Below, one piece after another: positions 1,791 to 57,518 of a DNA stretch of 62,505 nt (position 1 is its first letter; each line of letters starts with the position of its first letter). Both the position numbers and the translations under genes were made by a program. The notes below the pieces were generated by a model. The model was not told the DNA's origin, did no database searches, and saw nothing but the letters and a program-made list of their open reading frames with translations. The stretch covers positions 1 through 62,505 of the forward strand of contig CAZVGL010000004.1 of NCBI GenBank assembly GCA_964626705.1, written 5' to 3'. The stretch comes from an uncultured Candidatus Saccharibacteria bacterium. Lineage in GTDB: Bacteria; Patescibacteriota; Minisyncoccia; Phycocordibacterales; UBA2163.

Positions 1791-1855
1791 GTTTCCTAAA
1801 GATACCAAGGACTGTCCTTTGTTGCAACAAATGAGTGTATGATAAAATAAAGAGT

Positions 1856-12232: not shown

Positions 12233-12793
12233 ATGATCATCATAGGAATAACAGGAATATTGGGCGCAGGTAAGGGTACTGTCGTTGATTACCTTACAGA
12301 AGAAAAAGGGTTTAAGCATTATTCTGCTCGTGCTTTTATAACTGAAGAAATAGAAAGAAGAGGTTTGTCGGTAGATAGAGATACTATGACAGAAGTATCA
12401 AACGATTTAAGAAAGAGTAATTCTCCAGCCTATATAATAGAACAACTTTATAATATTGCAGAGTTAGAAGGACACAGTGCTGTAATAGAATCAATCCGTA
12501 CTTCTGGTGAAGTAGAATTCTTGAAAAGCAAAGGAGATTTTCATCTTTTGTCTGTAGATGCTCCTTCAAAAATTCGATACGAAAGGATCTCCACTAGAGG
12601 AAGTGAAACAGACAATGTCTCGTTTGAGAAATTTCTGGCAGATGAAGAAAGAGAGATGAAGTCGGTCGATCCTAATAAGCAAAACATAGGTTGGTGTGTT
12701 GACCATGCTGACTATAAACTAATGAATGACGGTACTGTTGAAGATTTACAAAAAGACGTAGATATTATTCTTAAAAAAATAAACCATATCTAA
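12233..12793 (+). CDS. P-loop nucleotide kinase (dephospho-CoA kinase/NMP kinase-like)
   Basis: IGITGILGAGKGT Walker A, IESIR, RYERI..RG. Confidence 0.8.
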   Translation: MIIIGITGILGAGKGTVVDYLTEEKGFKHYSARAFITEEIERRGLSVDRDTMTEVSNDLRKSNSPAYIIEQLYNIAELEGHSAVIESIRTSGEVEFLKSKGDFHLLSVDAPSKIRYERISTRGSETDNVSFEKFLADEEREMKSVDPNKQNIGWCVDHADYKLMNDGTVEDLQKDVDIILKKINHI

Positions 12794-13884
12794 TGAGATC
12801 TTTTTTTCAAAAATATAAAGAATTTTTCAAACGCAATGAGCGATATATTTCTGGTGGGGCACTTTTGCTTGGTTTTATAGTAGACAACTTTACTTTGACG
12901 AGGATCGATCTTAGTTTTGACAATATTGTACTTTTTACATATCTGACTATTGCACTCTTGGCGATAGTGGCTATAAACTTTTATGAAGAAGGGGTTTTGA
13001 AAGGGTTCTTATTTGAGAAAGTTAGGTTTATCGCACCACTTGCAATGCAATTTGCATTTGGTGGCCTTTTCAGTGGGTTCGTAATCTTCTATTCTAGAAG
13101 TGCATCGCTCATTACAAGCTGGCCATTTATTTTGATGCTTATTGCACTTTTAGTCGGTAATGAATTTTTCAAGAAAAAATATACTAGGTTTACTTTTAGG
13201 ATGAGTATATTTTTTGTAGCGCTTTTCTCTTTCTTAATCTTCTATGTTCCTGTTGTCACAAAGTCTATAAATGCTGGTATCTTTCTCTTAAGTGGAGTTA
13301 TAAGTTTGGCACTTATGGCGATTTTGGTCCATACTTTGAGAGTTTTTATTCCAGCTCGGATTAAAAAAAGTAAAAATGCTCTTAGGTTAAGTATTGTGAG
13401 CATCTTTGTTCTTATAAATATTTTTTATTTTACGAATATTATCCCACCGATACCACTTTCACTTAAAGAGGCAAGCGCACATTATTTTGTAGAGAGAACA
13501 GTTGGAGGCGACTATCTTGCGACAAGTGAAATTGAAAAATGGTACAGCTTTTTAACACTAGGTAATACTATTTATGTTTCAGTAGGTGAGCCAGTGTATG
13601 TTTTTAGTTCGGTATTTGCACCAACAAAACTCAATACGCAGATTTTCCATAAGTGGCAGTATTATGACGAGGGGAGGGATGAATGGATAGAGAGTGATAA
13701 GCTAGGGTTTGCAATATCAGGTGGACGTGACGGCGGGTATAGAGGATATACTATGAAATCAAACGTGACCGAAGGTCTCTGGCGTGTGGATGTGCTAACA
13801 AAGCGTAACCAACTTCTCGGAAGGGTGAAGTTTAAGGTAGAAGAAGTGCAAAAAACTATAGATTTAGAGATAAAGACTATTTAG
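12793..13884 (+). CDS. Polytopic membrane protein with C-terminal DUF2914-like domain
   Basis: ~7 TM then H.W, GGRDGGYRGYT, G.WRVDV. Confidence 0.8.
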   Translation: MRSFFQKYKEFFKRNERYISGGALLLGFIVDNFTLTRIDLSFDNIVLFTYLTIALLAIVAINFYEEGVLKGFLFEKVRFIAPLAMQFAFGGLFSGFVIFYSRSASLITSWPFILMLIALLVGNEFFKKKYTRFTFRMSIFFVALFSFLIFYVPVVTKSINAGIFLLSGVISLALMAILVHTLRVFIPARIKKSKNALRLSIVSIFVLINIFYFTNIIPPIPLSLKEASAHYFVERTVGGDYLATSEIEKWYSFLTLGNTIYVSVGEPVYVFSSVFAPTKLNTQIFHKWQYYDEGRDEWIESDKLGFAISGGRDGGYRGYTMKSNVTEGLWRVDVLTKRNQLLGRVKFKVEEVQKTIDLEIKTI

Positions 13885-13890
13885 TTATCC

Positions 13891-13913
13891 ACACAAAGGA
13901 CAGTCCTTTGTGT
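13891..13913. repeat. REP family A palindrome
   Basis: ACACAAAGGAC-A-GTCCTTTGTGT preceded by AGTTATCC; related imperfect copy at 1806..1821. Confidence 0.85.
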
Positions 13914-27500: not shown

Positions 27501-28049
27501 TTTGAAGTGAAAGACACAACAATACTTGACGATATGGAAAAAATAAGAAAAATAGCTTCGCTTGGGCTTGAGGCGCGAGCTAATGTAAATATAAAAGTAC
27601 GGCAACCCTTGGCTTCGCTTAAGTTAAAAACTGAAGGAGGAAAGCTGGACGATGGTTTATTGCAGTTAGTTAGGGATGAGGTGAATGTAAAAGAGATTTT
27701 GTTTGTCGCGGAAGAAGGTCTTTCCTCGGGTAGCGAAGCGGACGGAGGTGAGACCTTGGGGAGCGATATTGTTGAGCTAGATACAAACCTTACGCAAGAA
27801 CTTAAAGACGAGGGTGTCGTGCGTGAACTCACTCGTGCTATTCAAGGTGCAAGAAAAGTCGCAGAGCTTACCCCACAGGATTTTATAAACTTAGATGTCG
27901 AGACAGATAACAAAGGACAGTCCTTTGTAGAAAAGTTTGAAGAGCAAATAAAAACAGGAGCTCTTATAAAAGAAATCAGTTTCACCAAAACAGAAGGCGA
28001 CGAAATAAATGTAGATCCATATATATTCAAGTTTAAGGTAATAAAATAG
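24525..28049 (+). CDS. ileS: Isoleucine--tRNA ligase (type 2-like) with inserted histidine-phosphatase domain and in-frame repeat insertion
   Basis: GWDTHGLP, WTTTPWTLP, DWAISRERYW, KMSKS; RHA phosphatase insert at about 26019..26595. Confidence 0.96.
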   Translation: MENKNEQKNEIAKNEIAQKEEEVLKFWGENQIFKKSDEKEAPNGEFIFYEGPPTANGKPGMHHMEARAFKDAIPRYKTMQGFHVRRKAGWDTHGLPVEIQVEKELELHSKKDIEEYGIANFNKKCKESVWKYVDLWEKFTDRIGFWLDKENPYITYEPEYMESVWNVVKKVDDQKLLYKDYRIVNWCPRCGTGLSSHELAQGYQEVHDMSVYVKFKVKNKENTYLLAWTTTPWTLPGNVALAVGEKIKYKMLKADGENLILAEDRVEDVMKDKEYEVVEDLSGKDLTKYEYEPLYSYLEDTLPESETKKLKNAYKVYEADFVNTEDGTGIVHTAVMYGADDFILGTENDLPKHHIVNEDGRFISGTDFLEGKKVRGSNDEIIEDLEKKEILFDKERIKHTYPHCWRCKTALIYYARDSWYIRMSDLRDKLVKENNTINWEPEHIKEGRFGEWVREVKDWAISRERYWATPLPVWQNDKGENTVIGSIEELKKYTKKSGNKYFVMRHAEAENNTLSVISSKADNPHHVTEKGKEQMVDAIKQLKKEKIDLIIASPFVRTRETAEIAADGIGIDKSQIIYEQRIQELDAGDLEGVSVEEYHAYFDSTKECFEKGCPGGENYVQIKSRMGNFIYDIENKYKGKNILIVTHDAPGWLLINAAYGYSGEKAVAQRKDDKDHFIFNAEIKKLNFVPLPHNENYELDLHRPYIDEVELVDEKGNKLTRVKEVMDVWFDSGAMPYAQDHYPFENKELIEGGGYPADFISEAIDQTRGWFYTLHAIGALMCRGKAYKNVISLGHILDKKGKKMSKSVGNVVDPWEMTDKYGVDALRFWMYTVNQPGDSKNFEERSVDEVVKKVFNLLNNIVKFYELYSIKEQVFDDKHTKSGNVLDVWILAKLNKLKENTTKSLDEYHLFEPAREVREFIADFSQWYVRRSRDRFKTTGGDKEYALATTRFVLLELSKLMAPFTPFIAEQVYQKVRSIDMAESVHLESWPEFEVKDTTILDDMEKIRKIASLGLEARANVNIKVRQPLASLKLKTEGGKLDDGLLQLVRDEVNVKEILFVAEEGLSSGSEADGGETLGSDIVELDTNLTQELKDEGVVRELTRAIQGARKVAELTPQDFINLDVETDNKGQSFVEKFEEQIKTGALIKEISFTKTEGDEINVDPYIFKFKVIK
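27708..27764 (-). repeat. Family B repeat inserted in frame in ileS
   Basis: 57 nt; reverse complement is near-identical to 59931..59985; encodes AEEGLSSGSEADGGETLGS. Confidence 0.85.
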
Positions 28050-43158: not shown

Positions 43159-43784
43159 TTATATAAACACCCCATGCTTTATGGAGTTATCCACACTTTA
43201 ACACTTGTTGTTATTGGTTATTTTAACACTTGTATTATATAATTGACTTTAGGACTTTTCTGCTTGCATTTTGGCTTGAAATCGTGCATAATGCATGTTT
43301 CAGATGGATATGGATGTAATGGGGCAAAACGGGGGAATAGAGCGGTCATTGACAATTTAATATTAGTAGAAAGCTTCAGAAACACTCTTCCTTATATATG
43401 GATGCAACCTGTTTGCCCAAGAACAAAATAAAGTGATTGGATGCAAACAGCGAGTGCCCTTTGGGTGCAACAAGGTTGAAACTCGGTCTAAACTTCATCA
43501 ACGAATCTTCTATGTTCTGCGTCGATGCATTTTAAGAACATATTAGGTGCAGTAAGATTGTTGAAATTAGTATGGTAGATAAACACAGAAGTTTTACTCC
43601 TGTGTCTATCAGAAATTATTAACACAGAGACTATTAAATTTATTTTTAATAGTCTCAAATACACAATGTATTTTTTGTCGAATATAAAAAATACATTGTG
43701 TAACAGAATTGTTCTTCATTCACAATTTAATTAATTAACAGTGAAGTAAAGGACAACTTAACTTAAATTTAAAATTATAAACTT

Positions 43785-48356: not shown

Positions 48357-48388
48357 CACAAAGGACTGTCCTTTGTGGGGATAACTTT
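48357..48388 (-). repeat. REP family A, left flank of RAYT
   Basis: CACAAAGGACTGTCCTTTGTGGGGATAACTTT; inverted partner 49140..49171. Confidence 0.9.
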
Positions 48389-48415
48389 TATAAAAATCCC
48401 TTACTTTAAGGGTTG

Positions 48416-48456
48416 TTAACAAAAAAACAAAGGACAGTCCTTTGTTTTTTTGTTAA
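48416..48456. repeat. Extended REP family A palindrome (20+1+20)
   Basis: TTAACAAAAAAACAAAGGAC-A-GTCCTTTGTTTTTTTGTTAA. Confidence 0.9.
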
Positions 48457-48474
48457 ATAGGTTAATATTATTAT

Positions 48475-49140
48475 ATGAGAAGAAAAACTCCTTTTTTTGT
48501 TGGGCAGGTATATCATATCTATAACAGAGGTAATGATAAAAAGATAATTTTTAATGGCGACTATGATTATAAGCGATTTATGCTTTTGCTTTATCTTTGT
48601 AATAGCACGACACCTGTGGATATAAGAAGGCTATTAGAAAAAGGACTGTCTTTTGTTGAACTGTTTGATCTTGATAGAGGGGATACTTTGGTTGATATAG
48701 GTGGTTTTTGTGCAATGCCGAACCATTTTCACTTACTACTTCATGAAAAAATGGAGAATGGTATAAGTCAGTTTATGAAAAAACTACTCACTTCTTATTC
48801 CATGTATTTCAATGCAAAAAATGAAAGAAAAGGAGCTCTTTTTGAGGGGCCTTTTAGAGATAAACATATTGATACTGATTCATATCTAAATTGGGTATTT
48901 TCATATATTCATTTGAATCCTGTTAAATTAATCGATAATGATTGGAAAGAAAAGGGAATATCTGACCCTGTAATTGTTAAAAATTTTATAGATAGTTATA
49001 AGTATTCAAGTTATTATGATTATTTTTTAGGGAATAGGCCTGAAAATTCTGTTTTGAGTAAGGATGCTTTTCCGGGAGATTTTTCGCAATTAGATGATTT
49101 TGAAGATTTAATACAGGAATTTAGAAAAGATAATTACTAA
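48475..49140 (+). mobile_element. REP-associated tyrosine transposase (RAYT; Y1 HUH, IS200-like)
   Basis: YHIYNRG, MPNHFHLLL (HUH), YIHLNPVK (catalytic Tyr); flanked by REP palindromes. Confidence 0.9.
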
Positions 49141-49175
49141 AAGTTATCCCCACAAAGGACTGTCCTTTGTGGGGA
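49140..49175 (+). repeat. REP family A, right flank of RAYT
   Basis: AAAGTTA-TCCCCACAAAGGAC-T-GTCCTTTGTGGGGA. Confidence 0.9.
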
Positions 49176-53703: not shown

Positions 53704-53721
53704 AGTTATCCACAGTTTATC

Positions 53722-53746
53722 CCCACAAAGGACTGTCCTTTGTGGG
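53722..53746. repeat. REP family A palindrome
   Basis: CCCACAAAGGAC-T-GTCCTTTGTGGG right after the stop codon. Confidence 0.9.
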
Positions 53747-56539: not shown

Positions 56540-56560
56540 CACAAAGGACTGTCCTTTGTG
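56540..56560. repeat. REP family A palindrome after rplL
   Basis: AGTTATCCC-CACAAAGGAC-T-GTCCTTTGTG, followed by terminator hairpin AAAAAGAGGCC..GGCCTCTTTTT. Confidence 0.9.
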
Positions 56561-57291: not shown

Positions 57292-57518
57292 ATGAAAAAC
57301 ACCGTCACTCGAAAATGACGGTGTTTTGTTATCCACACTTAAAATAAAAATTTCATAATTAATAGTGATAGAATATATATAAGTGTATGTCTTTCATGCA
57401 CACTTTCTTAAAGGTCGCTTGTTTTGTGTAAAAAAGCGCAGAACAAAATTTTAGTAGTGTTAAATGCCTAGGCAATCCTATTTGTTCTTTCGGGAATGAG
57501 TGGGGCAAAATTAAAAGC

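Follow-up and report, generated by a model that had tools for sequence, protein, structure and literature searches.

A marine bacterium of the Candidate Phyla Radiation (CPR; class Paceibacteria) carries, at positions 48,357 to 49,175 of a 62,505-nucleotide stretch of its genome (uncultured Candidatus Saccharibacteria bacterium, assembly GCA_964626705.1, contig CAZVGL010000004.1; the whole stretch is hereafter called the window), a gene for a Y1 HUH protein that is bracketed by a palindrome of about 19 to 21 nt, REP1, of which further copies are dispersed elsewhere. We consider it likely that gene and palindrome form a REPtron-like module, in which the gene for a single-stranded DNA (ssDNA) nuclease/ligase of the RAYT type (REP-associated tyrosine transposase, REP standing for repetitive extragenic palindrome) is combined with its own hairpin repeat, REP1, often with a foot sequence. 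There is good support for a REP/RAYT-type system in a new phylum, in variant form, and for the pairing of the gene with its repeat; we infer that the enzyme writes the hairpins, and which roles the in-gene copy and the foot play. REP/RAYT is the textbook case of a domesticated transposase that maintains a repeat population, and it has been studied almost only in Proteobacteria; a literature search found no paper on REP/RAYT systems in CPR.

The gene encodes a protein of 221 amino acids with HFH at residues 84-86 (as NHFH) and YIHLNP at residues 144-149, and an alignment of 56 homologues shows no variation at H84, H86, Y144 and H146. It matches the Pfam family Y1_Tnp ('Transposase IS200 like') at 29.3 bits (cut-off 23). 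A structure-based search was needed because the family profile, run against the sequences of the PDB, gave only marginal matches to ISDra2 (E ~0.5). The AlphaFold2 model built from the 56-homologue alignment (mean pLDDT 90.5) has as its closest solved structure E. coli TnpA-REP in complex with a REP hairpin (4ER8_A; E = 1.2e-6, target-normalised TM-score 0.66), with the IS608 and ISDra2 transposases next at E ~1e-3; its C-terminal tail is helical. Motifs and fold thus agree with the earlier note on this DNA, which had called the gene a RAYT from the sequence alone. By motifs and length the protein fits class 2, subclass 2.1 of Quentin et al. 2018, as judged by motif comparison and not by placement in a tree. 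The family is large: 4339 proteins match it at E <= 1e-10, and the named ones are 'transposases' from Parcubacteria or Patescibacteria.

The locus is built as follows (window coordinates, strand, feature).

48357-48388, minus strand: left REP1 copy with foot (CACAAAGGACTGTCCTTTGTG + GGGATAACTTT); ssDNA fold -8.4 kcal/mol, z = -5.8
48398-48412, no strand: small hairpin CCCTTACTTTAAGGG, unrelated to REP1, between the two upstream REP1 copies
48416-48456, plus strand: 41-nt perfect palindrome, the REP1 core with A7/T7 arms; start codon 18 nt downstream
48475-49140, plus strand: RAYT-type Y1 HUH gene, 221 amino acids; HUH at nt 48724-48732, Tyr motif YIHLNP at nt 48904-48921
48638-48656, plus strand: internal in-frame REP1 copy (AAAAAGGACTGTCTTTTGT, encoding E-KGLSF-V), degenerate, with one stem mismatch and a weak fold
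49140-49175, plus strand: right REP1 copy with foot (AAAGTTATCC + CCACAAAGGACTGTCCTTTGTGGGGA), stem 13-14 bp; -14.8 kcal/mol, z = -7.4

Both repeats that the earlier note had described at the flanks of the gene were recovered. Positions 48357-48388 (CACAAAGGACTGTCCTTTGTGGGGATAACTTT) and 49140-49171 (AAAGTTATCCCCACAAAGGACTGTCCTTTGTG) are reverse complements of each other, the central base excepted, with ACAAAGGACWGTCCTTTGT as the core of this inverted 32-nt pair, and the 41-nt palindrome is perfect, with a 20-bp stem around a centre of 1 nt. As ssDNA the latter folds at -17.9 kcal/mol (z = -7.5), and the flanking copies as a group range from -8 to -18 kcal/mol (z -5 to -7.5). The left copy begins 1 nt past the stop codon of the upstream gene, which encodes a TPR-like protein of 279 amino acids, and the right copy starts on the final base of the RAYT stop codon. 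The 41-nt palindrome looks like a bidirectional terminator shielding the RAYT gene against read-through; Rfam returned for it sub-threshold chance matches to miRNA/sRNA models and nothing else, and a promoter scan of the locus gave no more matches than shuffled sequence. The neighbours of the RAYT gene are small membrane-protein genes, and no tnpB is adjacent.

The core recurs well beyond this locus. Counting AAAGGACNGTCCTTT with at most one mismatch, we found nine sites in the window (1806, 13895, 27912, 48360, 48429, 48640, 49154, 53727 and 56543) against 0.02 in shuffles, in line with the recurrence that had been noted earlier, and 23 in the genome as a whole (676,216 bp, 23 contigs), where the reversed pattern, used as a control, gave 0. 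Outside the locus there are 19 copies, and the genome contains four inverted doublets at 23-nt spacing, all of them coding. The dispersed copies in the window are:

1802-1824, plus strand: degenerate REP1 copy (CAAGGACTGTCCTTTG), 27 nt past the stop of the open reading frame (ORF) 190-1779
13884-13913, plus strand: REP1 copy with perfect TTATCCACA foot, which begins at the last stop-codon base of ORF 12793-13884; T-run after the hairpin
27908-27930, plus strand: REP1 copy in frame within ileS, encoding NKGQSFV; length unchanged against orthologues
53705-53746, plus strand: REP1 copy after two tandem feet (GTTATCCACA, TTTATCCCCA), 2 nt past the stop of a gene of 1274 amino acids
56532-56561, plus strand: REP1 copy with foot directly 3' of an rplL-like gene, followed by a separate canonical terminator hairpin

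The earlier claim that copies lie mostly right after stop codons describes the window, where the intergenic copies sit 0-30 nt past a stop, and fails for the genome, where 14 of the 23 copies lie in frame within ORFs of at least 100 amino acids and are read as KGQSFV, KGLSFV, TKDSPL or QRTVLC (some of these ORF assignments are doubtful: C4:1806 falls in an antisense ORF of 101 amino acids, and two sites are near N-termini). REP1 copies are not simply terminators, as seen both from these coding copies and from the one at 56543, which precedes a terminator of its own. Nor do they carry the GTAG foot of the proteobacterial repeats; as the note had it, they are near-perfect palindromes, and their feet read TTATCC(A/C)CA or nothing.

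That REP1 is the cognate repeat of the gene, as had been proposed, is borne out by the other RAYT genes of the same genome. It holds five divergent RAYT paralogues (37-64% identity to the query), each with its own distinct palindrome about 15-60 nt before the start codon and again at or just past the stop codon:

Paralogue 1: ACAAAGGACWGTCCTTTGT
Paralogue 2: ACAAAGG(T/C)T.A(A/G)CCTTTGT
Paralogue 3: GTACAAGGGYGACCCTTGTAC
Paralogue 4: AATCCGCTAGGT...ACCTAGCGGATT
Paralogue 5: TTTAGGT...ACCTAAA

Each of the five genes also has its own palindrome once more within the coding sequence, in frame, at +153 to +188 nt. To place this arrangement in a wider context, 60 homologous loci were surveyed in 61 genomes of this order, and 80 more formed an independent sample taken from GTDB species throughout Paceibacteria (Yonath-, Nomura-, Taylor-, Lloyd-, Kaiser- and Adlerbacteria among them); a palindrome was called shared if the upstream and downstream copies matched over at least 12 nt, and an internal match required at least 85% identity to the core of the locus. 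A shared upstream/downstream palindrome is present in 81 of the 141 loci that have both flanks available. Across loci, protein identity and hairpin-arm identity show a weak, significant correlation (rho = 0.16, reached in 2 of 500 permutations). The number of RAYT homologues per genome in the order ranges from 0 to 13, the maximum being that of a 0.7-Mb genome (G049) with 13 divergent ones.

In counts of two motifs, made across 10 to 61 genomes, repeat abundance follows the presence of the cognate gene, the relation on which the earlier note had let its proposal depend. The exact REP1 core occurs in 4 of the 61 genomes, all of the same genus (17 copies in this genome, 8 in G007, 4 in G008 and 3 in G002), and is absent from the other 57. 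The RAYT of G007 is the closest one (68% identity) and shares the core at each of the three positions, and G008 has a RAYT-1-like fragment at a contig end. A second family, AAGGTCNGACCTT, numbers 17 copies in G006, where it brackets the RAYT gene of locus L015 and also sits inside it; elsewhere in the genus the count is 0 to 5, and in this genome it is zero.

The copy inside the gene is found far beyond the five paralogues. A locus contains its own core within its own ORF in 35 of the 81 cases (43%), 34 of them at +151 to +176 nt, whereas cores of other loci are found there in 44 of 6480 comparisons (0.7%). The internal copy corresponds to codons ~50-60, in the linker that joins helix A to the strand running up to HUH, and this linker is equally long in loci with and without a copy, so the copy is not a recent insertion. 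Internal copies occur in all deep clades of the protein tree (32-69% protein identity) and are phylogenetically clustered, with 16 state changes against 27 in shuffles and none of 500 shuffles as low. The internal stems, at 14-19 bp, often exceed the shared core by private palindromic extensions (14 bp in L013 and L015, 15 bp in L021, 19 bp in L045), and the internal codons give a conserved x-Gly that matches the AGG apex common to most hairpin families. Imperfect internal stems contain 5 G.T, 2 A.C and 12 other mismatches, small counts for a comparison of RNA with DNA hairpins. In one clade (L052 at +465, L054 at +481) the cognate palindrome, with an 18-bp stem, is found at a second in-frame site past the Tyr motif and not at +150 to +176.

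The foot is a less regular feature. The hairpins had been described as often preceded by AGTTATCC, and GTTATCCMCA does occur seven times in the window against 0.15 expected, with five of the seven abutting a hairpin. Genome-wide, TTATCC(A/C)CA stands at ~12 of the 23 REP1 copies and is thus enriched rather than universal: 10 of 13 TTATCCCCA sites abut REP1, as do 4 of 32 TTATCCACA sites, one more of which abuts the palindrome of paralogue 5. Across 65 loci TTATCC is enriched ~10-fold at the hairpin foot, beside unrelated stems; the copies in G005 also bear it, and it is missing from the REP1 copies of G007. AGTTATCCCC is at most a putative guide. The variant TTATCCACA is identical to the DnaA-box consensus. 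A DnaA-like helix-turn-helix (HTH) in the C-terminal tail was considered as a reader of the TTATCCACA foot and found no support, the tail alone and the whole protein giving no Pfam match at E <= 10; among the 56 family members no HTH-like domain (Bac_DnaA_C, HTH_23, HTH_28) was found in Pfam at E <= 1, although the helical tail of the model leaves room for a remote relationship. The perfect DnaA-box consensus GTTATCCACA also occurs alone, in intergenic DNA with no hairpin, at 43186-43195 and 57328-57337 of the window and at ~27 further sites genome-wide, and TTATCCACA occurs 32 times in the genome against ~8 by a rough estimate from composition. Such lone TTATCCACA and GTTATCCACA sites could be empty target sites, decayed halves of repeats or real DnaA boxes.

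Comparison with sister genomes shows that these addresses are not static. The ileS copy (27912) stands in place of codons that most orthologues read as D-x-G-K-E-F-(I/V)-E and leaves the length as it is, and the same codons in G005 hold a different perfect palindrome, AATAAAGGTCAGACCTTTATT. In a gene for a UvrD-like helicase (C6), one REP1 copy is a 7-residue insertion, and the G005 equivalent of a second copy, consisting of foot and hairpin, is TTATCCACA plus AAGGTCCGACCTT. At the ileS and UvrD-like sites the stem reads GGAC-N-GTCC in this genome (G000), matching the repeat of the resident RAYT, and GGTC-N-GACC in G005; sister genomes thus differ in the palindrome found at orthologous addresses. 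Sites can also be empty: the G007 RAYT unit separates two genes that are direct neighbours in this genome, and in G002 a REP1 copy occupies a site that lacks one here. What these comparisons show is turnover and concerted change, not a mechanism. The G007 unit (L083 7010-7750, G007:C17) was inserted along with ~700 nt in which the other strand seems to encode a small membrane protein, and the resulting 1.5 kb takes the place of a 22-nt intergenic spacer of this genome (C8:22877-22900). At C2:72770, a terminator position past a stop codon with alignable flanks is taken by different perfect hairpins, AGCAAAAGTAGGGTCTGACCCTACTTTTGCT here and AAAAAATAAAGGACTGTCCTTTATTTTTT in G007 (L085, G007:C9). 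Relative to C1:50200-50219, G008 (L093, G008:C11) has a 1.9-kb insertion that contains a paralogue of the genes at C1:178000/183000, with a REP1 copy inside it beside that gene.

If it acts like TnpA-REP of E. coli and TnpA of IS608, the enzyme would recognise the palindrome as a hairpin on ssDNA, for instance at replication forks, and would cut and rejoin the DNA beside it. In doing so it may seed new copies and re-write old ones, including the three at its own locus, and this, we propose, is why the copies within a genome stay alike. The internal copy, lying in a length-tolerant linker, would most simply be one more address that the enzyme keeps updating, and it may also feed back on expression of the RAYT gene. 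One could go further and speculate that the enzyme, rather than chiefly adding new repeats, mainly re-writes hairpin cassettes of ~20 nt at fixed addresses (past genes, in housekeeping genes and in its own frame), so that a drift in its specificity updates all of them; the in-gene copy would then be substrate and coding sequence at once, a self-referential control or master template, and the TTATCCACA foot would link the system to replication as a cleavage or target site or as a DnaA-binding decoy. Re-writing is consistent with the unchanged length of ileS, with the different palindromes at orthologous sites in G000 and G005 and with the co-variation of the internal copy with the flanks, yet we regard this extended version as unlikely.

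Several observations weigh against the REPtron-like reading as a whole or against parts of it. The protein scores 39.1 bits against the NCBIfam equivalog NF047646 (REP_Tyr_transpos), below the cut-off of 80. The repeat families are small, the palindromes of the other four paralogues having 0 to 5 copies. G005, a 97%-complete assembly, contains four AAGGTC-type copies and no cognate RAYT among its six, which implies that copies can outlive their gene. The internal copy of the gene under study (KGLSF) is degenerate and folds weakly, the homologous position holding a perfect copy in 34 other loci; across the survey an internal copy is missing from 43 of the 81 loci and is therefore not essential. 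A comparison of strains on assembled contigs, the form in which 20 DNA runs could be used, gave no evidence of movement of the repeats: across the locus, 9 of 10 independent contigs from other seawater metagenomes were 100% identical to this genome over 1.6 to 20.7 kb, and the remaining and shortest one (L082) was 99.35% identical, with 5 mismatches and 1 gap. No RNA runs holding the RAYT gene were found. As regards G005, two candidates were discarded: AAAGGTCNGACCTTT is a singleton there, the looser core AAGGTCNGACCTT being the real family, and the sixth RAYT, tried as the cognate of the AAGGTCNGACCTT family, has AATCCTAGGGATAACCCTAGGATT as its hairpin.

The unit of hairpin, gene and hairpin could alternatively be an autonomous IS200-like insertion sequence (IS), with the palindromes as its ends and the dispersed copies as solo ends or miniature derivatives. 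Subterminal hairpins are a hallmark of IS200/IS605 ends, the Pfam match bears the IS200 name, RAYT-1-like genes occupy different loci in G000 and G007, and the number of homologues varies between 0 and 13 per genome in the order. An element of this kind is nevertheless hard to reconcile with a genome that has no near-identical copies of it (the best paralogue is 64% identical) and in which dispersed hairpins outnumber gene copies 19 to 1; moreover, the Tyr motif, YIHLNP, is of class 2 (Y---NP) and not the Y---Q of IS200 (Quentin 2018), the best fold match is TnpA-REP and not the IS200/IS608 dimers, and tnpB is not adjacent. We therefore hold this explanation to be improbable. Still further from the evidence, in our judgement, and very improbable indeed, is the idea that we are dealing with host hairpins (terminators or protein-binding sites, for example) which evolve independently and surround the Y1 gene incidentally. 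The genome is rich in hairpins, with 217 perfect ones (stem of at least 9) against 11 to 24 in shuffles, many with no Y1 gene nearby; the window copies lie directly past stop codons, some with T-runs (13895, 48429); and the terminator position at C2:72770 has different hairpins here and in G007. However, with private palindromes on either side of all five paralogues and, across the class, of 81 among 141 loci, their presence round the Y1 gene is not incidental, and independent host hairpins would account neither for the match of internal copies to their own rather than to other loci (43% against 0.7%) nor for an abundance that tracks the cognate gene; over half of the copies, besides, are in ORFs, where a terminator would be harmful.

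A narrower alternative concerns the internal copy only, which might be a selected control element, through which the enzyme, RNase III or the ribosome limits expression, or a master template protected by selection, instead of a passive by-product of homogenisation. Its fixed position (+151 to +176) in all deep clades, its stems extended beyond the shared core by sequence that is itself palindromic, and the conserved x-Gly that its codons give, matching the AGG apex of most hairpin families, all fit such selection. Against these stand the 43 of 81 loci in which the copy has been lost or has decayed, the present gene among the partly decayed with its catalytic motifs intact, and the mismatch types, which do not favour a sense-strand RNA hairpin (G.T 5 against A.C 2, in small counts). 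The same palindromes are also found in unrelated genes, so no special role of the internal copy is needed. We see selection on the internal copy as a real possibility, if a tentative one.

Taking the system as REPtron-like, its nearest counterparts are the E. coli REPtron (TnpA-REP/RAYT/YafM, 4ER8, with REP/BIME) and the RAYT/REPIN systems of Pseudomonas, with which it shares the Y1 HUH fold, as the best structural match, a hairpin repeat of its own that brackets the gene in inverted orientation, one repeat family per paralogue, an abundance of repeats tied to the gene and, as in REPINs, inverted doublets (the four at 23-nt spacing). It differs from them in having no GT[AG]G foot, in its perfect stems with no bulge and a centre of 1-3 nt, in families of 2 to 23 copies rather than hundreds, in the predominance of coding copies (over half) with an in-frame in-gene copy that co-varies with the flanks, and in a protein that scores too low for the NCBIfam equivalog. 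It is also set apart by having five divergent paralogues within 0.68 Mb and by the lack of synteny among orthologues, and because of these paralogues and of the non-syntenic G007 orthologue the gene does not qualify as single-copy and vertically inherited, that is, domesticated.

Among the RAYT classes, subclass 2.1 (Quentin et al. 2018, PMC6006769), identical with Bertels Group 1 and with the TIRYT/TIRtron elements that Di Nocera et al. described in 2013 (PMC3733652), has the same NH[YF]H and Y[IV]HLNP motifs (Table 1, PMC6006769), a similar length (~220-240 amino acids; ~238 for the subclass, 221 here), a helical C-terminal tail, long flanking inverted repeats, some of them self-complementary, and moderately abundant repeat families. 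The subclass is described as being without REP-like hairpins and as having a tail that resembles HTH or DnaA_C domains (PMC6006769), whereas the flanks here are perfect hairpins and no HTH/DnaA_C tail was found in the 56 members at E <= 1; the GGGGWSAS motif of TIRYT does not appear either, the flank here reading GGGGATAA. CPR members of subclass 2.1/TIRYT have not been described. The in-gene copy has a precedent in subclass 2.4 of Cyanobacteria and Bacteroidetes, where REPs are inserted in frame within tnpA-REP (Quentin et al. 2018, PMC6006769): in both cases the cognate REP is inside the transposase gene, in a peripheral variable region, and the frame is kept. Those are, however, variable-length insertions of GTAG-type REPs between the HuH and Tyr motifs, whereas the copy here lies upstream of HUH at a fixed position, adds no length and tracks the flanks across deep clades, with the second site (+465 to +486) confined to a minority of loci (L052, L054).

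The resemblance to the IS200/IS605 TnpA proteins (IS608, ISDra2) comprises structural similarity at E ~1e-3 and, by analogy, the HUH/Tyr chemistry and the recognition of subterminal ssDNA hairpins; the Y---Q motif, obligate dimer, identical multi-copy elements and frequent tnpB of that group were not seen. Finally, Rickettsia palindromic elements (RPEs) and intragenic REPs (Di Nocera 2013) are likewise in-frame palindromes tolerated in housekeeping genes as short surface segments. RPEs, unlike the units here, are insertions of 100-150 bp with no known enzyme; ours, of 21 or 42 nt, go together with a Y1 gene, and the ileS copy replaces existing codons at unchanged length.

Taken as such a system, the module extends REP/RAYT repeats from Proteobacteria to a new phylum in altered form, and to genomes of 0.5-1 Mb with almost no intergenic DNA. 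The repeats are short enough to be read as protein, a cell can hold several enzyme/hairpin pairs, and the target is found inside the enzyme's own gene. Dozens of natural triplets of enzyme, hairpin and in-gene copy are thereby available for studying how Y1 nucleases choose their hairpins, and the system lends itself to a clean test of whether DNA can be overwritten in place by such enzymes. In genome annotation, it gives an explanation for CPR 'transposases' and for odd KGQSFV-like segments of 7 or 14 residues in housekeeping proteins.

Other repeats were seen in the same genome. Families of perfect palindromes with no Y1 gene nearby include TGGGGAGAGGATTCCTTCCTCTCCCCA (4 copies), GCCAAACGGGACAAAT...ATTTGTCCCGTTTGGC (3), ...TACAGTTAACTGTA... 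(3) and AGTAGGGTCWGACCCTACT (3-4), with sites at C1:2696, C3:6365, C5:35792, C9:12519 and others. Within ileS, positions 27708-27764 hold a different repeat of ~57 nt, encoding EEGLSSGSEADGGETLGSD, which is a true insertion present only in this genome and G005 and absent from seven other orthologues of the genus.

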